From NCBI RefSeq assembly GCF_032062105.1, contig NW_026931074.1, positions 217,587 to 281,586 on the forward strand: a stretch of DNA of 64,000 nt, given 5' to 3'. Below the pieces are notes generated by a model. The model made no database searches, had not been told where the DNA came from, and worked only from the letters and a program-made list of their open reading frames with translations. A program made the translations under genes and the position numbers. Of this stretch, positions 920-63,286 are shown piece by piece. Source of the DNA: Saccostrea cucullata. Its lineage: Eukaryota. Each line of letters starts with the position of its first letter. Positions within the stretch are counted from its first letter, which is position 1.

Positions 920-1423
920 GTGAGATATAATACTGGTCCACAGGTAACATAAAAACAGTCAAACCGTAACATAAAAACAGTCAAACCTTGTTATCTCAAG
1001 TATAAGGGTCCAAGAAAAAACTTCAGGATAACCAAGGATTTATGATATCCAGGATGTTGAAATAGTACATATCCAACTAGCTCACTTCAACGTATACAGG
1101 GTATTTGAGATATGAAAATTCAACTGTATATCAATACATGTATCATAATTCTGAAATCTTTTTAAAAATTTTGAAGTGACTTCCACTTAATGTTAAATAT
1201 TGCATATGGAATGTCGAAGAAATTCGTGTGAATTAATATTTCATAGTTCCTGTTTATCTTTCAGTGTGCATCTGTCCATAACTGAACTTGCTTATATGAA
1301 CACCATAGTGTATACTCATATTAGAGCGGGGGTATTGCTAGTGAGCATTGGCTCACAGACTTCTTGTTTATCAAATGGTGTTAAAGCTGCAGGAATGTTA
1401 ACACCTAAGTTTTTCTTCCACAG

Positions 1424-1589
1424 GGTTTCACAATTTTCAGATGTCAAGCGATTATCAGAAGAAACAGGCTGTCTGCCCAGCTACCTAGCAAAGGGGATCG
1501 CGATGGGGTGCTTCTACTATGCCAGGTGTCTCCACGAGGGGCACGGGGTGAAGAAGGACGAGGAAGAGGCCAAGAAATATTATTCAAAG
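1424..1589 (+). CDS. Sel1-like repeat protein exon (3'-most seen; gene may continue or terminate by read-through at 1709)
   Basis: An acceptor ttcttccacag ends at 1423. The exon translates RVSQFSDVKRLSEETGCLPSYLAKGIAMGCFYYARCLHEGHGVKKDEEEAKKYYSK and lies within ORF 1200..1709. The donor AAG|GTAATC is at 1590. An alternative acceptor at 1440 is possible. If the 1590 donor is unused, the stop is at 1707-1709. Confidence 0.5.
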
Positions 1590-4500: not shown

Positions 4501-5175
4501 TTACAAACATTTAAACAGCAACAGAGTGAGTTAAGAGAGAGAGAAATCTTAGAATCAGAAGTAGGGGGGAGGGTTAGGTATATATATTGAAAATACACTA
4601 AATATTCTCATAGACATCCAGGAAAATAACATGATTATAAAAAGAACTTAGGTCTGCATACTGCAGTTTATGGTTTCAAGGTGATGTTTCAAGCTTTAGG
4701 GGGGCATTTTCTTCAAGGTCAGAGGCATGTCATCCACCAGAAAAACAAGATTAAAAATTCTAATAATGCACATAAAATCCTGGTTAAATTGTAAAGTTCT
4801 TGACACAGATTTTGAGTTTCAGATTTAGGTGGTGCAAAGTTGATCATTTCAAGAAAAAACAGGATCATGAAGGCCCATAGGTCTCTTGTTATGAAATATA
4901 ATTCTTCTTGTTACCTAAATTCTTCTGAGTGTATCACTGTAGATGTGAATTCAGATATAATAATATAAATGGAAAAGGTGAAGAAACAGTGATTGATTCT
5001 AAGAAAGTTATAAATGATACACCTATGTAAAGAGGGCTTAAAACAAGGACCCTGGATATTACTTAGGTGGGGTCAGGGGCCTAGGAGGAGTAAGCATCCC
5101 ATTGTTGACTGGAAACACTTTAATTTAGGGTGTGAACCCTTTGTAATTGGTAGGAGAAGCCAGAATAATTTTGGA

Positions 5176-14142: not shown

Positions 14143-17100
14143 ATATCACTCAGTATAAGACACTGTGTCTGATACATCACTCAGGATAAAACACTGTGTC
14201 TGTGATACATCACTCAGGATAAGACACTGAGTCAATGTGTCTGATACATCACTCAGGATAAGACACTGAGTCTGTAATACAACACTCAGGATAAGACACT
14301 GTGTCTGATACATCACTCAGGATAAGACACTGAGTCTGTGATACATCACTCAGGATAAGACACTGAGTCTGTGATACATCACTCAGGATAAGACACTGAG
14401 TCTGATACATCACTCAGGATAAGACACTGAGTCTGATACATCACTCAGGATAAGACACTGTGTCTGTGATACATCACTCAGGATAAGACACTGAGTCTGT
14501 GATACATCACTCAGGATAAGACACTGAGTCTGTGATACATCACTCAGGATAAGACACTGAGTTGATACATCTCTCAGGATAAGACACTGAGTCTGTGATA
14601 CATCACTCAGGATAAGACCCTGAGTCTGTGATACATCACTCAGGATAAGACACTGAGTCTGTGATACATCACTCAAGATAAGACACTGAGTTTGATACAT
14701 CACTCAGGATAAGACAATGAGTCTGTGATACATCACTCAGGATAAGACACTGTGTCTGATACATCACTCAGGAGTCTGTGATACATCACTCAGGATAAGA
14801 CACTGTGTCTGATACAGCACTCAGGATAAGACACTGAGTCTGTGATACATCACTCAGGATAAGACACCGAGACTGATACATCACTCGGGATAAGACACTG
14901 AGTCTGTGATACATCACTCAGGACAAGACACTGAGTCTCTGATACAGCACTCAGGATAAGACACTGAGTCTGTGATACATCACTAAGGATAAGACACTGA
15001 GTCTGTGATACATCACTCAGGATAAGACAATGTGTCTGATACATCACTCAGGATAATACACTGAGTCTGTGATACACTACTCAGGACAAGACACTGAGTC
15101 TGTGATACATCACTCAGGATAAGACACTGAGTCTGTGATACATCACTCAGGATAAGAGAATGAGTCTGATATCACTCAGGATAAGACACTGAGTCCGTAA
15201 TACAACACTCAGGATAAGACACTGTGTCTGTGATACATCACTCAGGATAAGACACTGAGTCTGTGATACATCACTCAGGATAAGACACTGTGTCTGATAC
15301 ATCACTCAGGATAAGACACTGAGTCTGTATTACATCACTCAGGATAAGACACTGAGTCTGTATTACATCACTCAGGATAAGACACTGAGTCTGATACATC
15401 ACTCAGGATAAGACACTGTGTCTGATACATCACTCAGGATAAGACACTGTGTCTGTGATACATCACTCAGGATAAGACACTGAGTCTGTGATACATCACT
15501 CAGGATAAGACAATGAGTCTGATATCACTCAGGATAAGACACTGAGTCTGTAATGCAACACTCAGGATAAGACACTGTGTCTGATTCATCACTCAGGATA
15601 AGACATTGAGTCTCTAATACAACACTCTGGATAAGACACTGAGTCTGTGATACATCACTCAGGATAAGACACTGAGTCTGTGATACATCACTCAAGATAA
15701 GACACTGAGTCTGATACATCACTCAGGACAAGACACTGAGTCTCTAATACAACACTCTGGATAAGACACTGAGTCTGTGATACATCACTCAGGATAAGAC
15801 ACTGAGTCTGTGATACATCACTCAGGATAAGACACTGAGTCTGTGATACATCACTCAGGATAAGACACTGAGTCTGTGATACATCACTCAGGATAAGACA
15901 CTGAGTCTCTGATACATCACTCAGGATAAGACACTGAGTCTGTGATACATCACTCAGGATAAGACACTGAGTCTGTGATACATCACTCATGATAAGACAC
16001 TGTGTCTGATACATCACTCAAGATAAGACACTGAGTCTGTGATACATCACTCAGGATACAACACTGAGTCTGTGATACATCACTCAGGATAAGACACTGA
16101 GTCTGTGATACATCACTAAGGATAAGACACTGAGTCTGATACATCACTCAGTATAAGACACTGTGTCTGTGATACATCACTCAGGATAAGACACACTGTG
16201 TCTGATACATCACTCAGGATAAGACACTGTGTCTGTGATACATCACTCAGGATAAGACACTGAGTCTGATACATCACTCAGGATAAGACACTGTGTCTGT
16301 GATACATCACTCAGGATAAGACACTGTGTCTGTGATACATCACTCAGGATAAGACACTGTGTCTGATACATCACTCAGGATAAGACACTGAGTCTGTGAT
16401 ACATCACTCAGGATAAGACACTGAGTCTGTAATACATCACTCAGGATAAGACACTGTGTCTGTGATACATCACTCAGGATAAGACACTGTGTCTGAAACA
16501 TCACTCAGGATAAGACACTAAGTCTGTATTACATCACTCAGGATAAGACACTGTGTCTGATACATCACTCAGGATAAGACATTGTGTCTGATACAACACT
16601 CAGGATAAGACACTGAGTCTGTGATACATCACTCAGGATAAGACACTGAGTCTGTGATACATCACTCAGGATAAGATACTGAGTCTGTAATACATCACTC
16701 AGGATAAGACACTGAGTCTGTGATACATCACTCAGGATAAGACACTGAGTCTGTAATACATCACTCAGGATAAGACACTGAGTCTGTGATACATCACTCA
16801 GGATAAGACACTGAGTCTGTGATACATCACTCAGGATAAGACACTGAGTCTGTGATACATCACTCAGGATAAGACACTGTGTCTGATACATCACTCAGGA
16901 TAAGACACTGAGTCTGTGATACATCACTCAGGATAAGATACTGAGTCTGTAATATATCACTCATGATAAGACAATGAATCTGATATCACTCAGGATAAGA
17001 CAAGTCTGACACTGAGTCTGTGTCTGTGATACATCACTCAGGATAAGTCTGTGACACTGATAAATACTGAGTCTCTGATACATCACTCAGGATAAGACAC

Positions 17101-19815
17101 TGTGTCTGATACATCACTCAGGATAAGACATTGAGTCTCTAATACATCACTCAGGATAAGACACTGAGTCTAATACATCACTCAGGATAAGACACTGAGT
17201 CTGTGATACATCACTCAGGATAAGACACTGAGTCTAATACATCACTCAAGATAAGACACAGTGTCTAATACATCACTCAGGATAAGACACTGAGTCTGTG
17301 ATACAACACTCAGGATAAGACACTGTGTCTGATACATCACTCAGGATAAGACAGTGTCTGTGATACATCACTCAGGATAAGACACTGAGTCTGTGACACA
17401 TCACTCAGGATAATACACTGAGTCTGTGATACATCACTCAGGGTAAGACACTGAGTCTGTGATACATCACTCAGGATAAGACACTGAGTCTGTGATACAT
17501 CACTCAGGATAAGACACTGAGTCTGTATTACATCACTCAGGATAAGACATTGAGTCTGTGATACAACACTCAGGATACAACACTGAGTCTGTGATACATC
17601 ACTCAGGATAAGAGACTGTGTCTCATACATCACTCAGGATAAGACACTGAGTCTGTGATACATCACTCAGGATAAGATACTGAGTCTGGGATACATCACT
17701 CAGGATAAGACAATGAGTCTGATATCACTCAGGATAAGACACTGAGTCTGTAATACATCACACAGGATAAGAGACTGTGTTTCATACATCACTCAGGATA
17801 AGACACTGAGTCTGTAATACATCACTCAGGATAAGACACTGAGTCTGTGATACATCACTCAGGATAAGACACTGAGTCTGTGATACATCACTCAAGATAA
17901 GACACTGAGTCTGATACATCACTCAGGACAAGACACTGAGTCTCTAATACAACACTCTGGATAAGACATGAGTCTGTGATACATCACTCAGGATAAGACA
18001 CTGAGTCTGTGATACATCACTCAAGATAAGACACTGAGTCTGATACATCACTCAGAATAAGATACTGTTTGTGTGATACATCACTCAGGATAAGATACTG
18101 AGTCTCTGATACAGCACTCAGGATAAGACACTGAGTCTGTGATACAACACTAAGGATAAGATACTGAGTCTGATACATCACTCAGTATAAGACACTGTGT
18201 CTGATACATCACTCAGGACAAGTGATACATCACTCAGGATAAGACACTGAGTCTGTGATACATCACTCAGGATAAGACACTGAGTCTGTGATACATCACT
18301 CAAGATAAGACACTGAGTCTGATACATCACTCAGAATAAGATACTGTTTCTGTGATACATCACTCAGGATAAGATACTGAGTCTCTGATACAGCACTCAG
18401 GATAAGACACTGAGTCTGTGATACATCACTCAGGATAAGACAATGAGTCTGATACATCACTCAGGATAAGACACTGTGTCTGTGATACATCACTCAGGAT
18501 AAGACACACTGTGTCTGATACATCACTCAGGATAAGACATTGTGTCTGATACATCACTCAGGATAAGACACTGAGTCTGTGATACATCACTCAGGATAAG
18601 ATACTGAGTCTGTAATATATCTCTCATGATAAGACAATGAGTCTGATATCACTCAGGATAAGACACTGAGTCTAATACATCACTCCGGATAAGACACTGT
18701 TTGTGTGATACATCACTCAGGATAAGACACACTGTGTCTGATACATCACTCAGGATAAGACATTGTGTCTGATACATCACTCAGGATAAGACACTGAGTC
18801 TGTGATACATCACTCAGGATAAGATACTGAGTCTGTAATATATCTCTCATGATAAGACAATGAGTCTGATATCACTCAGGATAAGACACTGAGTCTAATA
18901 CATCACTCAGGATAAGACACTGTGTCTGTGATACATCACTCAGGATAAGACATTTGTCTGGTACATCACTCAGGATAATAAACTGAGTCTGTGATACATC
19001 ACTCAGGATAAGACACTGTGTCTGATACATCACTCAGGATAAGACACTGAATCTGTGATACAACACTCAGGATAAGACACTGAGTCTGTGATACATCACT
19101 CAGGATAAGACACTGAGTCTGTGATACATCACTCAGGATAAGATACTGAGTCTGTAATATATCACTCATGATAAGACAATGAGTCTGATATCACTCAGGA
19201 TAAGACCCTGAGTCTGTAATACAACACTCAGAATAAGACACTGTGCCTGTGATACATCACTCAGGATAAGACACTGAGTCTGTGATACATCACTCAGGTT
19301 AAGATACTGAGTCTCTGATACATCACTCAGGATAAGACACTGTGTCTGATACATCACTCAGGATAAGACACTGAGTCTGAAACATCACTCAAGATAAGAC
19401 ACTGTGCCTGTGAAACATCACTCAGGATAAGACACTGAGTCTGTGATACATCACTCAGGATAAGACCCTGAGTCTGTGATACATCACTCAGGATAAGACA
19501 CTGAGTCTGTGATACAACACTCAGGATAAGACACTGTGTCTGATACATCACTCAGGATAAGACAGTGTCTGTGATACATCACTCAGGATAAGACACTGAG
19601 TCTGTGATACATCACTCAGGATAATACACTGAGTCTGTGATACATCACTCAGGATAAGACACTGAGTCTGTGATACATCACTCAGGATAAGACACTGAGT
19701 CTGTGATACATCACTCAGGATAAGACACTGTGTCTGTGATACATCACTCAGGATAAGACAGTGAGTCTGATATCACTCAGGTTAAGACAATGAGTCTGAT
19801 ACATCACTCAGGATT
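14143..19815. repeat. Minisatellite array, about 175 tandem copies of a 31-33-bp unit (gatacatcactcaggataagacactgagtctgt)
   Basis: A direct read shows continuous head-to-tail repetition over about 5.67 kb with point variants (gag/gtg, small indels). Each unit carries the inverted hexamers actcag and ctgagt, so a 6-bp stem-loop is possible. The minus-strand ORFs 14410..19551 (MMYQTQCLILSDVS...) are repeat-translation artefacts. Confidence 0.95.
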
Positions 19816-20905: not shown

Positions 20906-21772
20906 CTCCTCTTTCAGGCCCTACTACCCTACTACTCTGAAGATACAGTGTCTAATGATGTCAAAGCTACTGCTGATTCCTATTTATCCAGTAAAGACCA
21001 GACAGGTTAACACTTATCAATAAATAATCTGTGATATCATGATACAAATAACCTGTTTTTCCATTCAGCCACAAAGAGGTAGAGTCTATAAAAGGTGCAT
21101 TTTAAAAACTGATAAAGATCAACATAAAAAAAAAACATTTGATTTCCTGAATGAAATATCAAAATCAGCTTTTAAAAAGCAAATCAACAAATTGCAAATT
21201 CAAAACTGATGGTGCAGCAAAGCAAAAATATAATAATAATATCCATACAAAAACAAAGTAAATCTACTCCCCTATACATAATACTTGTCTTCTCAGAACA
21301 CCCAAGATCACCTCATCAGATGATTTAAATTCCTTTAATATTTCTGTGTAATTGATAGATACTTAGCTATTAACATCCTTATTAAAATTTGGCAGTGAAG
21401 TAGAAAAAAAAGCCTCCCTAGAACCCTAAGCTTTCTGTGCTGTCAACGGCAAGATGTAATTTGTGCGTTGTGATTTCCCTAACTCTTTTGAAGAAGCTGA
21501 GATCATGATAATCTATCCCTTGATGCAAACATTAAAAAAGTAAAATACAACATACAATCCCCTGGCTCACAATTAAACTACCTGGTATTCTCACTGAGTT
21601 AGTACACAAGTACTCATCAATCAAGTCCATTTTATGGTGCCAATAAAAATATCTGCTATAGACTAGGAAAATAATTGCAGAGAAAAACAATATCTAACAT
21701 ATCCAGTATACTGCAATATGTTGTCATGGCAATACAGAGTAGACTGGAAGGAATTGAAGAGAGCCATGACAA

Positions 21773-22012
<240 letters not shown>

Positions 22013-22552
22013 TTATTAGACACATATTCTGCAGAGAGGACAAAGACATTCACTGATCACCTACCATATGTACAGGAATTCAAAATTTTGTAAATAAGAT
22101 AGGAACTTATAGACAGGTTTATGGGTTGAAATCTGTTGATTTATTTTACCAAGATCATTCCCAAGATATTTATTCTGGTATACTAACACTTAGTGTCACA
22201 AAATATTTACTTATTTACAGGTCAAAATCAGATCTCTCAAGATTATGGCAAAATAAATTTAGAAAATCTTTAGTCTACTTTAATATTCCTGTATTTGGCA
22301 ATGCATAGATTAACAAATGGAGATGCTGCCAGGGAGACACCCATTTGGTTTATGTATATTTCTATATATATATATATTTACCAAATCTACTTTAGTACCA
22401 TTATCTAATTTGTATGAATAGTTATACACCTCATGACATTATGTATGCAACACTTGAATTAATGCAATGCTTTTTGAATTGTTCAACATTTTCTCATGAT
22501 TATTTACTTTGTCTGCCACCAAGGTCTGAGTTGTTTTCCTTCTATCTAATCC

Positions 22553-40785: not shown

Positions 40786-41700
40786 GCACGCGTGCGCATG
40801 TGAATGCATGTGCATAATGACCATATCGTCTTGTCTATACAATCTATATATTTTAATATACTAAATATTAAAGTATTTAATCCAAAAGCATTAAAAAATA
40901 CGCTCATTCAGGTGTTTTTTTGATTTTACTCATTACATGTGCACGCACGTACATACATGAGCATGGTGACCATACCTTCTTGTAGAAGTCTATTACATCT
41001 ATCTGTGTTCTAAATCCCACTCCGTTTGGTAACCAAGGGAGTTATAACTGTTTAAAGTTTCAGCCAATCAGATTGCAGTGCACGTGTATGGATGTGCATG
41101 GTGACAAAACCTTCTTGCAGAAGTCCATTATATCTATCTATGTTCCAAATCCCATCCTGTTTGGTTGAAAACCAAGGGAGTTATAGCTATTTAAAGTTTC
41201 AACCAATCAGATTGCAGCGCACGTACACGCACGTGTACGGATGTGCATGGCGACCATACCTTCTTGTAGAAGTTTATTATATCTATCTATGCTCAAAATC
41301 CCATCCTGTTTGGTTGAAAACCAAGGGAGTTATAACTATTAAAAGTTTAAGCCAATCAGATTGCAGCGCACGTGCATGCACGTGTTTTCATGATAATTGT
41401 TATATATGATGTTGTAGGATATCCTAATGCATGGCTATGTTCAAAATTTCAAAGGATTTCATCAAAAAACAAGAAAGATATTGAGACTTTGGTTTCAGCC
41501 AATTAGAGCGAAGCGCACGTGCATGCGCGTGAGATCTTGCTAATTTGACCATGTCATGTTGTCTATGCAACTAATATATCCTTATATTATGAGTTTCAAA
41601 GCATTTCATCAAAAAGGTAAAAAGTTACGCCTATATCAATTAAATCGGTCATTTCACGTGTTGCACGTGCACACTCTTGCAAGCACGTGCGCGCAAAATG
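40786..41700. repeat. Tandem satellite of ~142-bp units (3 well-conserved copies at 40936-41380 plus degenerate flanking copies) rich in CACGTG and CCAAT motifs
   Basis: The unit ...gcacgtRYRYgcaYgtg...catggYgaccataccttcttgtagaagtYtattaYatctatctRtgYtcMaaatcccaYcctgtttggttgaaaaccaagggagttataRctRtttaaagtttcaRccaatcagattgcagYgcacgt is repeated head-to-tail. Further decayed copies at 41490-41530 and 41640-41700 retain gccaat..gcgcacgtgcatgcgcgtg. Confidence 0.8.

Positions 41701-43024: not shown

Positions 43025-43114
<90 letters not shown>
43025..43114. repeat. (AT)45 microsatellite
   Basis: An uninterrupted atat... run is read directly, inside the putative intron after the 42261-42803 exon. 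Confidence 0.95.
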
Positions 43115-47329: not shown

Positions 47330-50215
47330 ACCATCAACACTGGAATGTGCAAATAATGTATAGAGGAGGAGATTCAGCACAGATTGCGAGAGAAGTGGGA
47401 ATCAATGAGTGCAGAAAACCACCGGAGCTATTAAGATAAGACTGGCCTCGGGCCAGACCGTCATGTACATTGGGGATGAAGAACTACTTAAGGAAGGATT
47501 TGTCATAATGATCAACCAACGGGCTATAAAATCACTCATGGAATGGACACACATCAGCAAGAGAACAATGGCAGCACGATCCTATTCAAGATACAGGAGA
47601 TTGTCGGTGATCCAAGCATATGCACCACATAATCAAAAGAAAGAAGAGGAGAAAAACCAATTCTTTCAGGAGTAACAAGCGACCTTGGATGAATGTAATA
47701 CGGACAACATCATTATTATCATGGGGGACTCATGGCCAAGATAGGGAGTGGCAATAATGGATATGAAAGAACTATAGGTATCCAAGGACTGGGAACACAG
47801 AACGAGAATGGAGAAATACTGTGTGAATTTAGTCGGACCAAACGGACTTGTAATCATAGGAACACTGTTCCCCCATAAAGACGTACACAAAGCAACTTGG
47901 GTGTCTGCTACTGGAACATTGAAAACCCAGATTGACATCTTCTCATTAGTGGACAGTGGAGATCTTCTGTTCTTGACATCAAGGTTCAGAGGGGAGCGGA
48001 TGCCGACAGCGACCACTAGCTGGTGAAGACCCGAATCAGGATACGGCTCACCACACAAGTATAAGAACAAGTTGAAACCAAGATTGGATGTAGAACGCCT
48101 CAAAAACAACAAAGTAAAAACAATGACTTTGCGAGAAAGAAATTAGAATAGCACAGGGAAAAGACGGATGATATCGAGGAAATGTGGAAAATCAGAAGAT
48201 GGCATATGTGAATTCAGCAGAGAAAGTACTTGGCTACAAACATTAGATCAACGAAAACACCTTGAAGTTGATAGATGAAAGAAAAGACATCAAGAAAAAG
48301 ATAGAGAGCAAAAGATCAGAAAGAGTCAAGACTAGGTTGAATGAAAATTACAAGGAGAGAGACAAAGTCGTCAAGAAAAGCGATAGAGGACAAGAGGAGA
48401 TGGATGGGAGAGAAGGCTGAGCGAGCACATAAAGCAGCCGAGAACAGGAGGTAGAAGGAACTGTACAGCATATTAAAGCAGCTGACAAGAAAGAGTAGTA
48501 AGGAAACAGCAGCGATGAAGAGCAAAGAGGGGGAGCTGCTGAAAATAAAGAAACGAGGCTTGCCAGATGGAGGGAACATTCTGAGGAAGTGCTCATCATG
48601 GACACGCCAGAATCCCCACCACAAGATGAACATGAGGAGGGAGAATAGCTAGACTTCTCGGTTGAGCCACCCACCACACAGGAAATAAGGACTACACTGA
48701 AGACACTTCGGAATGGAAAGGCCCCTGGAGCAGATCAAATAACTGCAGAAAAGTTAAAGGCAGACCTTGATAGGAGTAGCCAAGAATTGAAGCACACCTT
48801 TGACCAGATACGGAAAGAGGAAAAGGTGCCCAAAGAATGAACCAGAGGACTGATCTGTAAAATTCACAAAAGAGGCAACAGGACTGCAGCAAGTGGAAGG
48901 GAGTCACATTGCCCGTAGCCAGCAAAGCACTCATAAGGATCATCATCAAGATAATACAGGCTGGAGTTGACCACACCCTTAGCAAAGAGCAGGCACGGTT
49001 TCAGAAAGGGAGAGGGACTTTTAATCAGATTTTCTTCCTCAGGAACATACTGAAGCAAGACAATGAGTAGAATGCTACACTGTACATCCATTTTGTGGAC
49101 TTTGAGAAAGCTTTCGACTCGGTGCACAGAGACAGCATTTCGGTCATCATGAAGAAATATGGTATACCCATAAACTGATTACGATGGTCAAAGCCCTGTA
49201 TGACAAGTTTGTTCTGTGATTGATGACAACGAGACCAACTACTCCTTTCCTGTGATGACTGGTGTCAAACAAGGATGCTGAATGTCAGGGTTCTTCTTCC
49301 GCCTAGTGATAGACTGGGTGATGCAACAGACTGTCAGAGAAAAGAGAACAGGAATAAGACTTTCACCACTATGCTTGAAAACCTTGACTTTGCTGACGAC
49401 ATTGCCCTACTGTCATCAGCAATGAACTATCTTACGTCAAAGACAACAAAACTGGAAGAAAAATCCGTAAAAGTTGGGTTGAGGCTGAATGCCAAGAAGT
49501 GCAAAGTGATGAAGATAAATAGCAAGAGTAAAATCAGCCTGATAGTCGGAAACGGGGAAGCCGACGAGGCGAACAACTTCACTTACCTCGGTGCCAATCG
49601 ACCGATGATCGGTCGATGTCTGTTGCCCACCACTCAACCCCCCGATGACCTCAGATTCAACGGACACTTGACGATGCTCGGCCATACATCGGCCAATCCT
49701 TGAAAGATGTGTTAATGACGGGTTGCCAACGATTAGTTAAATGGCCTCAGTAACCGTCCTATTACTAAAGGAGTCCAGCCGGCAACCACACCATTTTTAT
49801 CAAAAAACGCATCGGTTTCTAATCGTTTACCCCATTGCTGGATAATGTGACTGATGCTTTACCAAGACAGAGGAAAAGAAGATCATTCAGTCCAAGTGCC
49901 TCAGAAGGATTCTAAAGGTCAGATGGCAGCAGCATATCCCAAACAAGACATCTCTGGAAATGGCAGAAGCAGAAAACATTAGTTGCGAGGTGGGCAGGAG
50001 GAGATGGAATTGGATCGGCCATGTGCTTAGAAAGGATCACACGGATGACTGCGTTGTGACCCTCGGTTGGACGCCTGAGGGGAGAAGAAACGAGGGCAAT
50101 ATGACGGTAGATGGTGCAGGCTGGAACACGGGACGCCGTGCAGCCTCAGACCGGCCTCAGTGGAAAGGAGATATCCAGGCCTTGTGTGCCTCCTGGCACG
50201 GAGAGAATTAAGGTA
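47330..50215 (+). mobile_element. Degenerate RTE-clade non-LTR retrotransposon (APE endonuclease plus reverse transcriptase), frameshifted and interrupted
   Basis: The endonuclease motifs appear in ORFs 47409..47675 (..RRLSVIQAYAPHNQKKEEEKNQFFQE) and 47808..48026 (..KDVHKATWVSATGTLKTQIDIFSLVD..). RT motifs in three frames over 48700-49560 include NGKAPGADQITAEKLKAD, FVDFEKAFDSVHRDSI, NLDFADDIALLS and KCKVMKI. The C-terminal ORF 49960..50211 (EVGRRRWNWIGHVLRKDHTDDCVVTLGWTPEGRRNEG...RPQWKGDIQALCASWHGEN*) is characteristic of RTE-type elements. Multiple stops and frameshifts indicate a dead copy. Confidence 0.75.
49588..49862 (-). mobile_element. Nested insertion of a ~275-bp CCGATG/CGATCG-rich non-autonomous element (antisense) inside the LINE RT region
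   Basis: This segment interrupts the RT reading frame between the FADD motif (about 49380) and the RTE C-terminal motif (49960). Its reverse complement matches the sequence that follows the LINE stop codon (50225-50470), which starts atcagtcacattatSCARCaatgggg... Additional copies lie at 50475-50575, 51290-51385 and 51500-51850. Confidence 0.5.
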
Positions 50216-50224
50216 AAGTAAATT

Positions 50225-51850
50225 ATCAGTCACATTATGCAACAATGGGGTATACGATGAGAAACCGATGCGTTTTTTGATAAAAATGGCGTGTTTGCCG
50301 GCTGGACACCTATAGTAATCGAACGTTGACTGAGGCCATTTGGCGAATCGGTGGGGGTCATGGTCGACCGACGTACGAACGATGTTTACCAATGTATGAG
50401 CGATGTAATATACAACGGCCGGTAACCCTGGAACATCGATTTATCATTAGCAATGCATCGCTTGGCCTTTGTAATTCCGACCGGCAACCATGCCATTTTT
50501 ATCAAAAAACGCATTGGTTGCCCATCGTATACCCCTTCGCTGGATAATGTGACTGATACATTAAGGACTACTAGGCCGATGTGGACCGATGTTGGGGCAT
50601 CGCTCACACCACGAATTACCACTGATTACCACCGGTTTACGGCCACCGGCCGGGAAATTTGACTAAGGCATTAGGTTGGGTTGAATTTTGACTGACATGT
50701 TGCATTCTGATTTCCAGAACTTTCAGTCTAACTTTGGCATATTCACCTGATACAGAGGGATCACAGCAGGTGTACTGGTCGACAGGGGATGCCCACACCT
50801 CTTATGCCTAGGTCACATTTAAGCCGATGGTCGGGTGACTAAATTTTTCTGGTCTTGTCGGCTGAAAAACATGATCGGTCGACACGAGTATTGGGCGACA
50901 CGGAGCAGTCACATTAATTCCTAGGAACACCGATGACTTGGATAAATAACACAACAAATCTTTTTTCTTTAGAAATCAGCAATATTTTTCATAGATCTAT
51001 ATTCAGATAGGTGATGTGAGTGATGTTTGCAAGGCACAGTGGTAGCTTTTTGTAAGATTGTAGCTCAGTGTTAAATCAAGATTTCTTTCTGTCTTACGGA
51101 TTAATTATCTAATGTTATTTCCATTTAAAAATATATATCAATCCATGCATCAACATTTTGTTTGTATTGTGAATCCTTTATGCCTAGGTCACATTTCCCG
51201 GCCGGTAGCCGCAGACCGGTGGTAATCGTTGGTAATCCGTGGTGTTAATGATGCCCCAACATCGGTCCACATCGGCCTAGTAGTCCTCACAGAATCAGTC
51301 ACATTATCCAGCGATGGGTATTCGATGGGCAACCAATGCCTTTTATGATAAAAATGGCGTGGTTGCCGGCCGGACTTTCAAAGGCCCAGCGAAGCATTGC
51401 TAATCATAAAACGATGTTCCAGGATAATCGACCGATGTGTATTACATCGCTCATACATTGGTGAACATCGTTCGAACATCGGTTGACTACGGACCAATGT
51501 CTGGTCGAACATCGACCGATGATCGGCCGTTATCTGTTGGACACCACTCAACCCCCCAATGACCTCAGATTCAACGGATATTGGACGATGCTTGGCCATA
51601 CATCGGCCGATCCGTGAAAGATGTGTTAATGATGGGTTGCCGATGAGGAGCAATGTGAGGCATCGTTGGAGACATCGCTGAATTTTAACTACGAATTATT
51701 TCTTACCGATGACCCCACCGATTCGCAAAATGGCCTCAGTCACCTTCCGATCACTAGTGGTGCCCGGCCGGCAACCACGCCATTTTCATCAAAAAACGCA
51801 TCGGTTTCTCATCGTATACCCTATCGCTGGATAATGTGACTGATACTTTA
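50225..51850. repeat. Cluster of at least 5 full or partial copies of the ~330-bp CGATCG/CCGATG-rich element (LINE 3'UTR-related) in both orientations, forming several long inverted repeats
   Basis: Module A (atcagtcacattatccagcRatggggtaWWcgatgRgaaaccRatgcgttttttgataaaaatggYgtgKttgccgg) lies at 50225-50300 (+), 50480-50570 (-), 51300-51385 (+) and 51780-51850 (-), and also at 49790-49860 (-). Segment 50360-50470 is the reverse complement of 51395-51500. Segment 50575-50660 is the reverse complement of 51195-51290. Direct copies of cctYttatgcctaggtcacattt lie at 50795 and 51175. The ORFs 50027..50662 and 51378..51653 are artefacts. Confidence 0.6.
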
Positions 51851-52859
51851 TAGATTAAATATTCACAAGTCGGCCAATCGTCGCCCGATCATCGAGCTCT
51901 GAGCTACAGTTTAATTTTAACCGTCGGCCGAAATTTTTGAAACCCTTATTGTCAAACGACGGACGACCGACTTAAGAAACTGATCGCCGATGGTCGGACG
52001 ATGATCGAAGGTTAGTCGACGGATAACTTAAATAGAAGAAATCGGCCACCGACGCAGAAAAATTATAACTTGGACCGATGGACACAAAAAAGAGGTCAAA
52101 ATCGGACAAGACAACGGCCGATGAACCGCCGACTGCCACCCGAAGAATCCCATTTTTGCTTCAAAAACCGTCGGCCGTTGGTCGTTTTTGGAAATGTGAC
52201 TGGGGTTTTAAGCACCTTGATCCAACCGCTTGTATTTTCAGGGGAATGTAGCTTTGCTGCTCCGACCCATTTGAAAAAAAATATTTGGTCGGGAGATGGG
52301 AAGCAAACATTTTAATTATCGATGGCGTAATTTCTCTAAATCTACATGTGAAATAGAATATTGAAGGATTGTCCATTTGTAGTTAATTTTGCTTCGTAAA
52401 TGGTAAAATAGAGCATTGAACTAGGCCCTTAGAATAACAATGTTTATTATTGATATAGTTGTATAATTTTTTAGGTCTTGTCTGGTTGTTCCTTGCAGAA
52501 TTATACAATGTTTCCATTTTCAGAAAAAGTAGGAAAGATGGCAAAGAAAGCTGTATTTTTTAAAAGTGATGACACTTTTTTGTGTATTAGGATGTGTTAT
52601 CCGTATCTGGATGATATCTGGATCCATATCTGGATATTCATACCTATTCTTTATTTTTTTTAATGTGGTTTACGATCTGTTGATAAGTTGTGTGAGAAAA
52701 TGTGTTTTATTAACATGTAAAACATTATTGACAAAATTTGCTTGTGAAACACTGACAGCTTTTGGCGAAGGTTGAATTTCTCAAATGCATGTCAAACTCC
52801 AAGGTTAATGTCATAAGGTAAAGGAAAATATTTATATCTATGGAAAGGACTTGCCACAA

Positions 52860-54464
52860 TGTTATGAAAGCCCTAGCACAAACTGTTCAAAAGTTATGTC
52901 CAAGGTTAAAGTTAGGAAAATTCTTCCAAATTAGGACAAACTCTAAGGTCAAGAGATGAAATATTTTGTTACCAAAAGGCTTCTTCAAAATGAATACTAA
53001 TGTGACTGAAATAAAAGAACCATAGCTAAAACCATCAGAAGTTATCGGCAATGTTAAAGTTTTGGTGGACAAACAAAGAAACCCACTGACAGAGCATAAT
53101 TTATATACCCCGAACATTGATATGAGGGTGGGGGTAAAACACGTCATTAGTATATACTAACATTAAAGGGGCATAGACACAGTTTCAGCTAAAACTTTTC
53201 AAATTTATTTTTCCATTTTTACAAATTAACTAAGGTCTTTCTAATGATCATCAAAAATACTCAAGTAGTCGAGATACAAGACAGATTTAGAGCTCCAAAC
53301 TTATGTTATGTAAACAGGGTCCGTGTCATGGTTTGTTTACATAGATTAATATACTAGCATATGTTCGTTCACAGCAGATAATTTCAATGAAGAAGTTAAT
53401 TCTAAATACAATTAGACAGTTTCTAGTGATTTGCTGAATTTCATTGTGTTATCAATAAGATATTTTCTATATGTAAACAATAAAAGGCACGAGCCCTGAT
53501 TACATTTTGAAGAATTTTAAGTTCTGTATCTCGTTTGTTAATCAAGAAATGATGTTCAAATTTTTGCTGATCATTAGATAATGCCTTGATTAGGAATTGT
53601 AAGCATTAAAATTGGTTTAAAAAATTCAGTTGAAACTGTGTCCATGTCCCTTTAATATGTTTCGTATATACAAAAAAATAGTAGTCTTCTAAGAATCAAT
53701 TCAATTATCTTAATTCAAATACAGGTTAGACATATTTTTCAATCGATGTAGGATTTATAACATTTCTTGAGTAGTGCATTTATGTCAATAAAAATACCAT
53801 ACCCACTTATATTTCATATATAAATGTAATGAAGTAGATCAAATCAATATGAGGAAATATTGAGGTTGCAAGCGAAAACAAGATTTGTTTGTGAAACTCA
53901 AGTTTCTCAACTGCAAGTCATATTCCAGGGTTAAGATCAGGAAATGAAAAAATGTTAATCAAAGAGAGGATTCTTCTTGATAATCATACCATTGACATAT
54001 GAAAGTCCAACCACCAACTGTTCAAAGGTTATGGCCAAGATTAAACTTTTTAAAATATAGGTCAAACTCAAAGGGTCAACGGTCAATTTAATGGTACCTA
54101 GGGGAATGCTTTGTCATTAGCAGTATAGAAAAACCTTAGCACTAACTGTTCAAAAGTTTTGACCAAGGTTAAGGTTTTCAAAAGAATGTCAAATTCCAAG
54201 GCAAGGTCAAAATTATTGGTATTTAAACAAAGGTCTTGTCACAAGGAATACATCTGTGAAATATTGAGGCCCTAATACTAACTATTTAAAAGTTTTGACC
54301 AATGTTAGCGTTTTTTATTTAAGTTGGCCAAACTCGAAGGTCAAGGCTTAAAGGTAAAAGTAATATCTATATCCTTGGAAAGGTCTTGTCAGAATAAGTA
54401 CGTATATGTGAAAGATGAAAGCCATAGCTCCATTTGTTCAGAAGTCATGACAAAGGTTAAAATT

Positions 54465-54495
<31 letters not shown>

Positions 54496-55450
54496 GCAAA
54501 AATCAAATATGTTGGCATCCAAAGGAAGACTTTGTCACAAGGAATGCACATGTGAAATATGAAGGCTATAGTCTAAGAAATGTTATGAGTAAGATTATAG
54601 TTTTTAAAGACAAACATACAGACATACGGACGAAAAAGCAAAAACTTTATACTCCCGAATTTTCGATAATGGGGACATAAAACAATGTGAGGAGAGTGGA
54701 AATTTATCACTAGATTTTCACAAATTAAAGATGGCAGCTTACTACAAAATTAAGCATCAGACACAAACATACAAAACCTTTTTGTTGCACAACTTTGAAT
54801 GGTTGAAATATGAAGATAATGAACAGATCAAAAATTCATTCAGATATATATACATGTAGTAAAGTGAGAGCATATACAGAGAGCATGGACCCCACAAATG
54901 GGATCAAATTCCATGAAGGAGTAAGCATCCCCTGTCAAGTGATAGCACCTGAACCGAGTGAACGTGGGAACAATGACATTTTAAACAAGATGTGTTTGTG
55001 GAACACTGATGCCCCTGTATGGCAGCTGATGGCGAGGATTGAAGAGTCTCAAATGTAAGTCAAACTCCAAGGTCAAAGGGCCAAACTTGTTGGTATCCAA
55101 AGCCAGGAAGATCTTGCCACAAGGAATTTAATTGTGAAATAAAAAATTCCTAGTAGTGCTCGCTGTTCAAAATATTTGGTCAAGGTTAAAATTTGGTCAA
55201 ACTCTAAGGTCAAGGTTAAATCGTCCAACTTGTTGGTATCTAAAGGTAGGTCTTGTCACAATGAATACACTTGTGAAATACCGTATGAAAGCCCTAGATT
55301 ACCTGTTTAAAAGTTATGGCCAGATGAAGTTTTTTAAAAATTATTTTCCAGGGTAAAGGCCAAGAGGCCAAATTTATTGACACCCAAAGAAAGGTTTTGT
55401 CACATGTGAAATATGAAAACCATAGCTTAAACCACTCAAAAGTTATGGGC
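52860..55450. repeat. Array of ~110-125-bp tandem or sub-tandem repeats (aactgttcaaaagttatgRccaaggttaaRgtt..aaa...gtcaaactccaaggtcaag...) forming the left arm of the large palindrome
   Basis: Recognisable units start near 52865, 53975, 54120, 54240, 54400, 55060, 55140 and 55280. A T28 tract lies at 54468-54495. The same family occurs in the opposite orientation at 57040-58220, and one more copy lies at 61840-62230. Confidence 0.65.
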
Positions 55451-55765
55451 AAGAATAAAGGTTTTGCGGACAAACTAACAAATAGACAGACGAAGAGGGC
55501 AAAAATATATATTCCTTATCCTCGGTTAAATGCGCATAAAATTAATTTCAAAACGTGTGTAAACGCAAGAAAGGTTAGAGATGAATGTGGAATTGATACC
55601 GGGTATTACATTCATGTAAAAGGTTTTTAATTGAAATTCTGCGTTATAAAATGGAAATACTCATTTAGTGTCAATGGGAATTAGCAAAGATTGGAAGATT
55701 TTTCTTCAAAGACGGCATATACTGTATACTATTGTTAGTGAGAGACTCCAGAACCTTTATGTCTC
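54400..55765. repeat. Left arm of a ~1.35-kb-arm inverted repeat (partner 56790-58125)
   Basis: Several segments match the reverse complement of the right arm: 55641-55765 with 56790-56915 at about 90% identity, 55560-55640 with 56930-57040, 55470-55530 with 57041-57120, and 54820-55075 with 57340-57600 at more than 90%. The spacer 55766-56789 is about 1 kb of unique sequence. Confidence 0.8.
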
Positions 55766-56789
55766 AAGGTAATAGAAGTAGTGCGTAAAGATTCACTGTG
55801 ATTTTTTTTTCGCCAAATATTTCTTTCCAGATGGAAAATCAAAAGATATGACCATTTTGTTGTCTATTTTTATTGAAGAATCAAGTTGATGGTCCAATTT
55901 TATTTGAAATAAAAAAAAAGATTATCACATGAAATTACCACAACTTTTCAAATACAGTGTACCAATATGTTGTTGGGAATAAACTTTAATAAGTTTCTCC
56001 TCCATTGTTTTTAATTCTTTTCCTGAAGATCTAGAGTTAAGATAAAGACTTGGTAGATCATTTACTAGAATCCGAAATGTATCTCTTTGCAGGAATATTA
56101 ATGAGGGTTAGAAATCTAGTATAGGTATGCTAATTCAAATATAATACTGGTATAATTTTGAGAGAGAAAATGTCTCCGTTTAAAAGGGAGGAAATTTTAA
56201 TATAAGCTAGAAAACTACTTGAAAAAGAAAAATATCCTGTAAAAATAAGCTCCAAACAAACAACGATTTTGTCTATAGCAAGTGGAACCAAAATATACCG
56301 ATTTTGTCTTTGAAATCTAGCAAGTAGAACCAGAACATACTGATACTAGAATTAATTACATATGATTTTTTATTCATTCTGGATTTTTGAGGACAGAATA
56401 GATTATATATATTGTTCCCTAACTACGAGATTCAAATATCCACCTTACTCTTTATTGCTTGACGTTTGGCCCATCCTTCGACATAAAACGTAATCAAACT
56501 TTGCATTTCTACATGTACGAGATGCCATTGTCTTAAAACATGACAAAGTTTGCGGTGTACTTTAAGAAAGAAAGATAATTATAGGTTGTAAGTCTGTAAA
56601 TATTTATACACTGGGTAATGATGATTTTTTTCCTCTTCAATTTGTATAAACCTCCAATACCTTATATGAAATAATCATTTTACTCTTATAATGTTTAGCC
56701 AACCTACATTGTATTCACGTAATTTTTGAAGTCAAACATTTCTTTGTCAGTCATTTCAGCCCTACACAATTTGTTCGTAATCGCCAGGA

Positions 56790-57940
56790 AAGAATTCATC
56801 ATGACCTTGAGACATAAAGGTTCTGAAGTCTCTCACTAACAATAGTATATATGCCGTCTTTGAAGAAAATTCTTCCAGTCTTTTCTCATTCCCATTGACA
56901 TTGAATGAGTATTTGCATTTCAAAAACCAGAATTTAAATTAAAAACCTTCTACATGAATGTAATATCAATTCGACATTCAGTTCTAACCTTTTTGCATTT
57001 ACAACTTGTCATAAATTAGAATGTTGACTGATGTTTTGTGCCCTTGAAATCGAGGATTCGGGGTATATAGCTTTTGCCCCGTCTGTCCATCTGTCTGTTT
57101 GTTTATCCACAAAAACTCAAACCTTGTCCGTAGCTTTTGAGTGGTTATAGAGTTATGGCTTTCAGATTTCAGTTGTGTATGCAATTTTCCAAATTTGACC
57201 TCTTGACCTTTACCTTGGAGTTTTACCCACTTTCGCAAAAAAAAATTACCAAACTTTATCCTTGGTCATAACTTTAAATAGTTAGTCTAGGGCTTTCATA
57301 TTTCTCAGATGTGTTCCTTGTGACAAGAATCTTCCTTTGGATGCCAACGACCTTGGAGTTTGACTTACATTGGAGTCTCTTCAATCCTCGCCATCGGCTG
57401 CCATACAGGGGGATCAGTGTTCCACAAACACATCTTGTTTAAAATGTCATTGTTTCCACTTCACTCGGTTCAGGTGCTATCACTTGACAGGAGATGCTTA
57501 CTCCTTCATGGTATCTGATCCCCTCTGTGATGTCTTGAGGCTCTCTCTATGCGTTGTCACTTTACTCTATCTGAATGGATTTTTTTTCAAAGTACGGGCA
57601 ACAAAATTTTACATTGTTTGTGTCTGATGCTAAATTTTGTACTAAGCTGCTGTCTTTAATTTGCTAATAAGCCGGTGATAAATTTCTTTTAATAGCCATT
57701 GCTTTTTTTATGTCCACGTTATCGTAGATTCAGGAGTATATAGTTTTTGCCCTTTCCGTCCCTCCTTTTTTTCTGTTTTCCTGTTTATCCATATCTGTTC
57801 GTCTGTTTTTCCACAAAAACTATAACCTCACTCATAATTTTCGTTAGAGCTATGGCTTTCATATTTCACATGTGTATTCCTCACGACTAAGCCTTTCTTT
57901 TGGTACCAACATATTTGACCTTGGAGTTTGACACTTTTGC

Positions 57941-57972
<32 letters not shown>

Positions 57973-58125
57973 GCCATTACTTCTTAACAGTTAGAGCTAT
58001 GGCTTTCATCTTTCACATATGTACCGTATTTATTCTAGCAAGACATATACAAGGATATAGATATTTTTTACCCTTGACGTCCGACTTTGAGCAACTTCAA
58101 AATAAACTTTAACTTTGGTCATAAC
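56790..58125. repeat. Right arm of the giant inverted repeat, ending with an A30 tract (57938-57967) and 120-bp family subrepeats
   Basis: See the left arm. The right arm carries gagtctcttcaatcctcgccatc...ttgtttatccacaaaaactYaaacc, which is the reverse complement of left-arm segments, plus two copies of gctatggctttcatatttcacatgtgta. Confidence 0.8.
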
Positions 58126-59109
58126 TTTTGAGCAGTTACAGTAGTTATAGGCTAGGGGGCCATCATATTTCACACATGAATTCCTGTTGACAAAATTTTG
58201 TTTAGGTACAAAAAATTATGATCTTAACCTTGGACTCGGATATTTTCCATAAACTTTAGGACAACAATTAAACAAACAATTTCTTTATACTGACCAATAT
58301 TAATGAATTTCGCCCATATTTTATATGATTTGAAATTCTGTCAAGATCCGGTGGTTTGTTACATTAAAGTCCACTGATTGCTTTCGATGTTTCGGATTTA
58401 GAGATTTGAAAATCTAGTTCACTAAAACATGTCCGAACCTCTAATTGAAAAACCTTCTTTTCTAAAATAGCAATTCTTTGTTTAAATGAATCTTCAACAA
58501 TATTTAACAATAAGAAATGTGTCAATCGGCATAAGGCAGATACTGTAAAATCACATATTTTGAGGGGTCAATTTTTCGTGGTTTGAGGAAAAAATATGAG
58601 TCCGCCAGAATCGCTGAGTTGTTATATTTGTGAAAAATTGCATTTCACAGTGGACATAAATTCATGGGTCTCTTCATACCCGCAAAACCACGAAAATTAA
58701 ACCCCCACTAAAATTAGTTATGTCAGTATTGCATTCCCATTATCTATTGACTTTTTGTTAATGACGTGATTTTCTGTGTCAGGATTTTTGTGTACTGTGT
58801 GATTTTTATGTCGATCTAAATGACTAGGACTAGACGCGGTAGACAAGGGATGATTGCTTCTCCTGGGCACCTGATCTAGCCTCTGCAATTCTTGAGTTAT
58901 TTGTATTGTTTGAAGTTTATATGAGATCGATCCTTGTTCGTTCTTACCCTTTATCATGAAAGAAAATCTCTGAAAATAACATTTTAAAGATATATACATT
59001 TTATGTACATTAAGGACAGAAGTATGATATCTTTGTAAAAATGTTATTTTCAACAATCTATCTTTAAATTTTAATGTGTACATGTTATTATGACAATAGG
59101 AAAACACAC

Positions 59110-61122: not shown

Positions 61123-63286
61123 AGAAAGAAACTTGGAATAACCTTAAGATGTTTTGGAAGCACGGAAACCGAAATTCATTCAGCTGTTTTCGGTTCGATA
61201 CAGTTTGTTTCCGGAAAGTAAAATGACCTAAATGAACTATACAATTAGCATCTATATTAAAAAAAACCCTTTATATTAGACTTTCATTAAAAGTTTGTGA
61301 ATCTGATTCGACGAGAAACACTTGTTAAAGACACTATAGTACTGTTACTCAATGATAAAACCAAGTATACGTCCTTCAGTTGACAATGGTAAAAAATTTC
61401 AGTGTAAACCTCAGATTCATATGCATTGAATGAAAACATCCCAGTTCGCAGTTTTTCATAGAATAACTAATTAGTAATTCTTAAAGAAGAAAAATGGCAA
61501 AAACCGCATATATTCCCTGGGAAACATATTAGCACCCAGACTAACCAACGACTGCGTTTTCAATCTATCATTATAACCCAGAAATGTCGTAATCAATGCT
61601 ACAATGACACCTTTTCTGTCATTGTAATATGAATTAATATTGACTTTGTACTCAAGGGGGAGAAAGTTTTCTCTTCTTTTAAAGACAAACGACCGATTGA
61701 ACATCTGCACACTATGGGACCCAAGGGCCACAAAGCTAACCTGCAGTCAATAATCAAGCTCGATCGCCGAAATAGAGTTGTAATTATATATTTAATTATA
61801 TATATATACTAAATGTTGATTCGGGAGGGGAATGTTCATTTATTTTAGCCTGACTCTCTGTCTAGCTTTTTGTTTGTCCACATAAACTTTAACATTGTCT
61901 TTATCTTTTGAATAATTAGGTTAAGATTTTTATATTTCTGTGTATGTTTGTGAATGTCTTGTGACAACACCTTAATTTGAGTACCAAATTTAACATTCAT
62001 GATCTTTTAACTTTGGAGTTTTTACTACTTTTCAGAAATATTAACCTTACCTTTAAGTCTTAGATAGTTTGTTTTTTGGTTTTCATAAAACTTTTGTGTT
62101 TTGTGACAGAACCTTTCTTTGGATACTAACAATTTTACGTCTTGGTTTGACCTTGGAGTTTAACCTTCATTTGAAAATCTTACCTTGGCCATTAGCTGTC
62201 ACGGGAGCATCAGTGTTTATTTTTCTGTTAATAGACACACTTTTAGGGTAGGTTGGGATTGTTTCGCTGTATCATCATTATGATAAGGTTGGTTTTTTTA
62301 AATTATGAGTTATCATTAATTTTCTTAGTTCATTTTGAATAATAAATAAAAATAATAAAGGAGTTTCTCTTCCTTTTCACAACAGTGTAGTTGTGTGTGT
62401 GTTCTTTAAAAAGAATAAAACAGATATATTTAAACATTAGATGTTTGGATGAATTCTCTTGTCTGTTAAAGGTTTTTGCAAATGGCATTTGTATTTCTAA
62501 ATTTACACTGATGTCTAGCGGTGAAATCAAATCAACGTTATGTGGAGGGTACATTTGTTAATTAATTTTACTGTATCACCTGTTCAAAGATATTAAATGG
62601 GTCAGGTATAGGTAGGACTGACTATCATCTTCACAACTCACGTCAGCTGCATCTTCAAGAGACGACATCGATATGTATTTTTATGTAATAAGATATTTGT
62701 ACACACTATTTCAATTAAGCGATTCAAAACTCAACTGTACCCATTTAGTTCATTTGAATACACGTGCAAATGAAACAAGATATGTTTGTGAAACTCTGGT
62801 GCCCTCTATAGCAGTTTAAATTCTCAACTCTGACACAGGTCATTGCATCACAAAACGCAGTTTCACAGTTTGTATCACCTTTTTAGCAGAAATCCGAAAA
62901 TAGAAAATACCCAGAAAATTTGTGGAACGCATACGAGTTAGAATATAGGTCCTATAGTTGCCAATATCTGCCATAATTACTCTACATACCGTTAAGAGTA
63001 TCACCAGGAATACTATCAAGGTAAAGTACATATGTATTTTTTAATCAGTGGTTATATAAAAGTGAATAGTGACATTCTTAATTTTTATAAATATATAATT
63101 AAGCATAACAAACTGTTCAAAGTATGTACACCTGAAGACAGATTATAAAATCCAGAAAGCGCTTGTGATACAGTAATTTTGAAACTGTGCTTTTTTCCGC
63201 TATTATAATTATTTTTACTGTGTAACATCAACTTTTGAATTATATGTATCGTTGATCGTCTGATGACTACTTGGTTAAATTTATAG

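Follow-up and report, generated by a model that had tools for sequence, protein, structure and literature searches.

A long palindrome in the genome of the oyster Saccostrea cucullata is most likely an inverted segmental duplication carrying two decayed HINEs

The architecture of HINEs was described for non-autonomous Helentrons (Thomas et al. 2014, PMC4067079). In the oyster Crassostrea gigas, satellite-like arrays are carried by 11 Cg_HINE families with a GTCY-type microsatellite, two to five monomers in fixed orientation, T-rich targets and no target-site duplications (TSDs); the (GTCY)n motif class was reported for Cg_HINE_1, 3, 6, 8, 10_13 and 11_12 (Vojvoda Zeljko et al. 2020, PMC7492417). 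Bivalve elements with a comparable architecture are Pearl, MgE and DTC84, of which Pearl has been re-categorised as a non-autonomous Helentron. In Foldback-type transposons (Drosophila FB, Galileo and Tetris; Dias et al. 2014, PMC4079207), long inverted arms with tandem repeats enclose a short non-coding middle, and the element can fold back. Here we describe a palindrome located between about 54 and 58 kb of a 64,000-nt stretch of Saccostrea cucullata DNA (RefSeq assembly GCF_032062105.1, contig NW_026931074.1, positions 217,587 to 281,586 of the forward strand), which is AT-rich (~33-35% GC) and is referred to in the following as the window. A first-pass annotation had interpreted the palindrome as a Foldback-type transposon or, alternatively, as an inverted segmental duplication of a satellite-embedded short interspersed nuclear element (SINE). 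Our data indicate that it is probably not a mobile element and that it represents an old inverted segmental duplication of oyster intergenic DNA carrying two decayed HINEs, most likely a neutral relic. Both components are of known kinds, HINEs with satellite-like cores being well documented in oysters and inverted segmental duplications being common structural variants.

The inverted repeat at 54-58 kb is confirmed and lies far above chance. Comparison of the palindrome region with the whole window by blastn gave two antiparallel matches, 54195-55197 with 58234-57248 (E=1.8e-163) and 55232-55773 with 57348-56801 (E=4.3e-89), and a repeat search returned 26 inverted pairs, the best of which span 111 nt (95% identity) and 118 nt (89%). 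The antiparallel arms of the first-pass annotation are therefore present, as is the unique spacer of about 1 kb between them. The arms reach further outward than the limits of 54400 and 58125 given there, to 54176 and 58253, and their identity, which had been put at about 90%, is 85-86% over ~1,308-1,330 aligned columns of a global alignment, equivalent to a Kimura two-parameter (K2P) distance of 0.165. The palindrome as a whole is ~4.1 kb long and imperfect. Identity ranges from 78% to 96% between segments, perfect complementary runs between the arms extend up to 42 nt, and ~17% of the left arm has no aligned partner. This unpaired fraction includes one whole extra unit, with ~176 bases extra in the left arm, corresponding to one repeat unit. 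Past the arms no significant homology was detected, whether on their outer sides (z=1.5) or on the spacer side (z=-1.7). The spacer contains no open reading frame (ORF) longer than 53 aa (Table 1).

Each arm is a collinear composite of four segments, U1, HINE C, U2 and HINE B, and the two arms share private features, namely an expanded A/T tract and the same junctions. U1 and its mirror are 91% identical and lie upstream of the 5' boundary that is conserved among HINE copies. The ends of the arms do not coincide with the ends of these elements. Only the 5' 507 bp of HINE B (54176-54682) belong to the left arm. The right arm stops inside the third unit of HINE B' (model positions 6-108 of 133), where on the left HINE B runs on through two more units (B4, B5) and its 3' flank, and the inner arm end is located 232 bp upstream of the 5' end of HINE C. 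The outer ends differ between the two arms, and no arm end, outer or inner, is placed at the terminus of an element. No direct repeat of at least 6 bp was found between 50-bp windows at the two outer ends, a test for TSDs that is weakened by arm divergence. Because the arms contain host DNA and two independent HINEs, have asymmetric ends away from element termini and show no TSD, we conclude that they are not the terminal repeats of a mobile unit. An A30 tract had been taken as the end of the right arm. The tract in question, at 57941-57967, is an A27 within the arm, with T28 as its counterpart in the left arm; it is internal to the repeat unit and is no retroposon tail.

Saccostrea echinata provides a comparison for the left side of the palindrome. 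One syntenic stretch, L001, ends ~6 kb short of the palindrome, and a second, L002, reached via the neighbouring gene, extends to the left arm. L002 is collinear, in the same order and orientation, with window positions 52337-52711, 53669-53874 and 54683-54833. The central block is 77% identical (E=5e-40), and the last, situated in U2 and hence inside the left arm, is orthologous to L002 20929-21092. From this collinearity it follows that U2 is ordinary host DNA in its ancestral orientation. L002 contains no HINE units; it lacks HINE A together with an adjacent miniature inverted-repeat transposable element (MITE)-like element (52712-53668), and it lacks HINE B (53875-54682). At the site of HINE B, L002 has an uninterrupted A/T-rich tract (...GGTGCAAAAAAAAATAAAATAAAATAAAAAATAAAAATAAAAATATG...), and the window flanks of the element (...GGTTGCAAGCGAAAA on one side, CAATGTGAGG... 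on the other) align either side of it. We conclude that HINE B inserted on its own, in a T-rich target of the kind that HINEs are expected to use. No duplication adjoins the ends of HINE B, at a precision limited by ~24% divergence between the species. An apparent TSD near HINE B, the direct repeat CAATATGAGGA / CAATGTGAGGA, was rejected, its left copy lying 25 bp outside the element boundary. Directly after the U2 ortholog, L002 carries a lineage-specific insertion (~21100-22353) that by eye resembles the 3' end of a long interspersed nuclear element (LINE).

Inverted segmental duplications with a spacer arise by replication template switching or fold-back repair. The locus shares with them a copy in ancestral orientation that is contiguous with its flanks, a truncated and reversed derived copy across a short unique spacer, and breakpoints that bear no relation to element termini. 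Before the duplication, the locus would have held HINE C and HINE B in the same orientation, with ~300 bp of other DNA (U2) between them. A segment of ~1.5 kb, bounded on one side 232 bp past the 5' end of C (the stretch U1) and on the other midway through the repeat array of B, would then have been copied in reverse 1,027 bp downstream, most likely by one of these two mechanisms. Since then the arms would have diverged by ~15%, one repeat unit would have been gained or lost, and the termini of the HINEs within the arms would have decayed. We infer that the left arm is the original copy and that the species split came first, followed by the insertion of B and then by the duplication. The duplication would accordingly be younger than the insertion of B, and it probably also postdates the split from S. 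echinata, because the arms are 85% identical, compared with 62-77% for alignable orthologous intergenic blocks.

The subrepeats were defined by iterated nhmmer as units with a 133-nt consensus. They are spaced 122-151 bp apart, with a repeat period of ~136 bp. As they are only ~60-85% alike, Tandem Repeats Finder calls no array of 110-125 bp. A tandem array of 110-125-bp subrepeats, nominally 120 bp, had been described at 52860-55450. Repeats are indeed found there, but with the longer period of ~136 bp and as three discrete clusters of two, five and three units, with 872 bp and 452 bp of DNA without units in between. Mirrored units are mutual best matches within the window (B2-B'2 86%, C3-C'2 84%, B3-B'3 75%). 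Units C1 and C'1 pair at 71%, and unit C2 has no partner.

To compare the sequences flanking the units, we aligned the regions around all clusters with a well-preserved S. echinata copy, E1, which served as the reference for the element termini. E1 (L001 ~31000-31850, minus strand) has five units, an intact 5' hairpin and an intact 3' palindrome. A common order of modules emerged. A T-run and a 5' subterminal inverted repeat (subTIR), TTTT followed by ATGCCCCTGGAT, are succeeded directly by a complementary inverted repeat (IR), GATCCTGGGG, then by GTATATAG-TTTTTGCC and a (GTCY)n microsatellite. Two to five units of fixed orientation come next, followed by a 3' subTIR complementary to the 5' one, a stem-loop (GTGTTtCACAAACAC or GTGTT(T/C)CACAAACAC), and the end ATCTTGTTT. 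The 3' subTIR reads ATACAGGGGCAT in copy C and ATATGGGGGCAT in E1. By eye, the C motif and the 5' subTIR of E1 are complementary over 11 of 12 positions. When both subTIRs are taken from one copy, the match is 9/12 in E1, 8/12 in C and 7/12 in C', and the 3' subTIR of B is lost. Because of these reduced matches and the missing 3' subTIR of B, we regard the copies within the arms as decayed. The right flank of HINE C matches that of the L001 copy at ~90%.

The remaining modules are consistent with this arrangement. In E1 the IR has the form CCCCTGGATC-GAAA-GATCCTGGGG, with a predicted fold of -9.5 kcal/mol that none of 200 shuffled sequences equalled (z=-5.2); in the window copies B and C' the 5' hairpin has decayed (z about 0). 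In A, B, B', C, C', D and E1, runs of GTCT, GTCC and GTTT separate the first unit from the left flank, and in all seven copies the two to five units have the same orientation relative to the flanks. At the 3' end, ATCTTGTTT comes after the palindrome GTGTTTCACAAACAC, which leaves 9 nt up to the end; the palindrome has z=-2.5 in E1 and -1.0 in C. The target could be read in one case, HINE B, whose site in S. echinata is uninterrupted A/T-rich (AAAAT)n; the element itself is bounded by T-runs. Because this architecture matches that by which HINEs are defined (PMC4067079, PMC7492417), each unit cluster is assigned, by structure, as the central repeat block of a HINE, that is, of a non-autonomous Helentron. 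HINEs A to D occur in both orientations and HINE D lies outside the palindrome, which shows that the family is dispersed in both orientations. HINE A is likewise outside the palindrome and forms the outer part of the array described earlier. The unit family is present in two Saccostrea species and was not seen in the single Ostrea edulis locus examined.

Among described elements, Cg_HINE, Pearl (CvA/CvE), MgE and DTC84 resemble the copies reported here most closely. They share the modular plan of a subTIR and IR in a left flank that ends in a GTCY microsatellite, two to five monomers of fixed orientation, a right flank with subTIR and stem-loop, T-rich insertion sites and an ostreid host; they are likewise non-coding and densely dispersed, in either orientation. 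The comparison is one of architecture, and the Cg_HINE monomers are mostly 160-180 bp long (short ones being CL6 with 147 bp and CL12 with 138 bp), compared with ~133-147 bp in our copies. The DINE-1/HINE elements of Drosophila, mites and mosquitoes (PMC4067079) are also similar in having subTIRs of 12-13 bp that lie within a few nucleotides of a T-rich 5' end, a nested IR, a microsatellite, central repeats, a 3' stem-loop 8-35 bp from the end and a preference for TT or T-rich targets. They differ in host phylum, share no sequence similarity with the oyster copies, and in mite families have the 3' subTIR 38-60 nt from the end, compared with ~26 nt here. The elements may represent a new Saccostrea HINE family with a short monomer of ~136 bp. 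We additionally observed a decayed two-unit copy of the family to which E1 belongs at L001 28804-29049 (minus strand), and an isolated right-flank motif, GGGCACCAGAGTTTCACAAACATATCTTGTTT, at window 62766-62817 (minus strand). No units are recognisable upstream of the latter, which is either a 3' fragment standing alone or part of a HINE whose core differs.

Table 1 Features of the palindrome and its surroundings, in window positions. HINE assignments are structural.
Feature	Position	Strand	Description	Basis
Left arm	54176 (or 54195)-55773	-	~1.6 kb; probable ancestral orientation; units 3-1 of HINE B with 5' flank of B, U2, HINE C, U1	blastn self-matches; global alignment 85.3%; collinear with S. 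echinata L002
Right arm	56801-58234 (or 58253)	+	~1.45 kb; putative derived inverted copy; U1', HINE C', U2', 3'-truncated HINE B'	blastn; global alignment
Spacer	55774-56800	.	1,027 bp; unique	no match elsewhere in window, L001 or L002
T28	54468-54495	+	mirrors A27; expanded A-run in unit 1 of B and B'; unit consensus has GAAAAAAAC there
Cluster A	52754-53027	-	2 units	nhmmer
Cluster B	53900-54571	-	5 units	nhmmer
Cluster C	55024-55427	-	3 units	nhmmer
Cluster C'	57152-57394	+	2 units	nhmmer
Cluster B'	57849-58253	+	3 units	nhmmer
Cluster D	61920-62200	+	2 units	nhmmer
HINE A	52732-53139	-	2 units; outside palindrome; absent from S. echinata ortholog
HINE B	53875-54682	-	808 bp; T-run, 5' subTIR 54666-54678, (GTCY)n-like microsatellite, 5 units, 3' end ...ATCTTGTTTT
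HINE C	54983-55541	-	559 bp; 5' subTIR 55525-55537, microsatellite, 3 units, 3' subTIR ATACAGGGGCAT 55009-55020, palindrome GTGTTCCACAAACAC, end ATCTTGTTT
HINE C'	57034-57440	+	407 bp; mirror of C; 2 units instead of 3
HINE B'	57703-58253	+	mirror of B; 5' flank and units 1-3; without units 4-5 and 3' flank
HINE D	61920-62200	+	further decayed copy; 2 units
U2	54683-54982	.	~300 bp non-HINE DNA between B and C; mirror U2' 57441-57702
U1	55542-55773	.	232 bp non-HINE DNA at inner end of arm; mirror U1' 56801-57033

In a Foldback-type DNA transposon, tandem subrepeats would make up the arms as long terminal inverted repeats (TIRs) on either side of a middle domain, with the entire unit mobilized in trans. 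The superficial likeness to FB and Tetris is evident, since the locus combines long inverted arms that contain tandem repeats with a non-coding middle of ~1 kb without an ORF (definition in PMC4079207). The first-pass annotation favoured this origin, which we consider highly improbable. Where the right arm ends in the middle of a unit the HINE array goes on at the left, leaving no common outer terminal domain, and the 8-10-bp TSD is absent as far as the diverged arms allow this to be judged. The subrepeats are parts of separate HINEs, sitting between HINE flanks with termini of their own, and for HINE B an empty site is present in S. echinata. U2, although internal to the arm, is orthologous host DNA that is collinear in that species, and no further copy of U1 or of the spacer was found in the window, L001, L002 or the ~140 kb of Saccostrea and Ostrea DNA examined. 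The alternative offered by the same annotation fared better in that the inverted segmental duplication was recovered; its cargo consists of HINE/Helentron elements and not of a satellite-embedded SINE. A SINE was rejected as cargo: a tRNA-like head is missing, ARAGORN and Rfam gave no hit anywhere in the window, the A27/T28 tract is internal to the unit, and copy B has no TSD. It appears unlikely that a composite mobile element (U1-C-U2-B), for example a Helentron that transduced its flank by read-through, inserted here twice, independently and in opposite orientations. Oysters carry dense HINEs in both orientations (PMC7492417), as does the window, Helitron-type elements are known for the capture of flanking sequence, part of U2 is repeat-like, and the copy survey spans ~140 kb, all of which would be in keeping with such insertions. 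The positions of the arm boundaries, 232 bp upstream of C on the inner side and within a unit of B' on the outer side, do not fit HINE termini, and read-through transduction was rejected as the origin of the arms for this reason. Moreover, U2 is collinear with S. echinata and adjoins the empty site of B, and U1 is single-copy in all DNA examined.

The remaining alternatives concern the function of the duplication and the integrity of the assembly. An inverted duplication could be maintained as a functional hairpin-RNA locus that supplies endogenous small interfering RNAs (endo-siRNAs) or Piwi-interacting RNAs (piRNAs) against this HINE family. For a read-through RNA of 4,078 nt, the predicted fold has 1,521 pairs, 1,133 of which join the two arms, a minimum free energy of -1,705 kcal/mol and a longest helix of 47 bp; the perfect complementary runs noted above extend up to 42 nt. 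No function is indicated for the locus. Read-through transcription into such a long imperfect hairpin RNA would be its only plausible activity, and small-RNA production from it would be physically possible. On general grounds, a cruciform is unlikely to be extruded across a spacer of 1 kb. The decay of the arms, with many indels and the loss of a unit at the K2P distance given above, is nevertheless consistent with neutrality, and their heterogeneous identity shows no sign of maintenance, so that we regard maintenance for function as quite unlikely. This possibility is compatible with an origin by duplication and contests only the neutrality of the product. In its more specific form, in which the duplication was co-opted and a duplex of ~1.4 kb with two HINE copies would give rise to small RNAs silencing this Helentron family in Saccostrea, we judge it very unlikely; if it were true, the locus would be the mollusc counterpart of Drosophila hairpin RNA (hpRNA) loci or a single-locus piRNA trap. 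Inverted duplications are, finally, a known class of long-read artefact, and a palindromic chimeric read or a mis-join would in principle produce an inverted repeat. Chimeric palindromes are nearly identical with little or no spacer, whereas here many indels and one whole unit distinguish the arms, which are 85% identical and enclose a unique spacer of more than 1 kb. An assembly artefact is thus extremely improbable.

Several observations weigh against an inverted segmental duplication as the source of the palindrome, or reduce the detail in which it can be reconstructed. After 15% divergence, junction microhomology is unreadable by eye, so that template switching is a putative mechanism. The orthology of U2, at 62.7% over 166 bp (E=1.5e-8), would be weak if taken alone; it appears credible mainly because of the strong collinear block that adjoins it. 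Part of U2 (54776-54951) also resembles a dispersed repeat. L002 ends in a LINE ~1.3 kb past the U2 match, which leaves C, U1, the spacer and the right arm out of view. The copy number of U1, U2 and the spacer derives from the ~140 kb of DNA surveyed, and the HINE membership of the clusters is argued from structure, with no autonomous partner seen. Taken together with the evidence above, we still consider an inverted segmental duplication the probable origin of the palindrome.

The repeat-like part of U2 (mirror 57471-57586) has matches of 62-73% at L002 10982-11133, 16243-16294, 18970-19116 and 19813-19951 and at L001 3582-3733; the L002 copies in turn match window positions 4950-5119 and 50676-50807. 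Directly adjoining HINE A is the MITE-like element, ~520 bp in length (53150-53668), with TIRs of ~110 bp (GTATATAC...TTAAAGGGGCATAGACACAGTTTCAGC and mirror) whose arms, at 53147-53258 and 53560-53674, are ~75% identical. Two ORFs in the palindrome had been reported as mirror images that are probably non-coding. The 82-aa ORF at 54810-55058 exists, and its counterpart is an 85-aa ORF with a TTG start at 57370-57627. Both lie on the plus strand of the window and are therefore on opposite strands of the homologous sequence. No homologue was found for either of them, the search with the 82-aa ORF covering 5.8 billion protein clusters; none of six arm ORFs has a Pfam match, and an 86-aa ORF from HINE A returned only two spurious low-complexity matches among 1.84 billion representatives. 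As judged by these searches, the arm ORFs are indeed non-coding. The protein searches gave no support for bivalve 'proteins' built from such units.

Elsewhere in the window, a 312-aa exon at 31446-32384 (minus strand) belongs to a spermine-oxidase-like gene and is 98.4% identical to S. echinata XP_061184283.1, and an ORF at 42237-42821 matches an S. cucullata protein at 99% identity. Both matches point to a Saccostrea rock oyster, most likely S. cucullata, as the source of the DNA. A 169-aa ORF at 1200-1709 (plus strand) has a weak Sel1-repeat match (E=7.7e-6, below Pfam's cut-off) and is probably an exon of a neighbouring gene. Adjoining the spermine-oxidase gene is a minisatellite of 5.7 kb (14145-19814) with ~175 copies of a 33-bp unit, ATCACTCAGGATAAGACACTGAGTCTGTGATAC, at 86-87% matches. 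By eye this unit is partly self-complementary (ATCAC.TCAG ... CTGA..GTGAT), and the minisatellite is also found at the syntenic S. echinata position (L001 23535-25828, ~82-86% identity). Arrays of a 166-bp monomer at 27924-28471 and 33092-33563 (3.3 and 2.8 copies, 86-89% matches) flank the large spermine-oxidase exon. Both of their consensus units share the motif CCCGCCCT.CCCCCGGGG, and their length and copy number are typical of oyster Cg170/HindIII-type HINE central repeats. A 149-bp repeat in 3.0 copies at 40957-41378 (82% matches) may be another HINE-type central repeat, and a perfect (AT)45 microsatellite is located at 43025-43114. The stretch at ~47400-50250 (plus strand) appears to be a degraded non-LTR retrotransposon, which accounts for its GC-rich, A-skewed composition. 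An ORF within it (49275-49703) matches RVT_1 with E=2e-6, just below Pfam's cut-off, and the ORFs beside it by eye contain an endonuclease-like and a LINE C-terminal motif.

The result is corrective and opens no new mechanism. What appeared to be a rare Foldback transposon would be two well-known things stacked, oyster HINEs inside an ordinary inverted segmental duplication. The locus also adds an example of a dated HINE insertion, whose empty site is seen in the sister species. It suggests that, besides transposition, segmental duplication may spread and invert short satellite-like arrays, which bears on the discussion of a 'satellite DNA (satDNA) library' in oysters.

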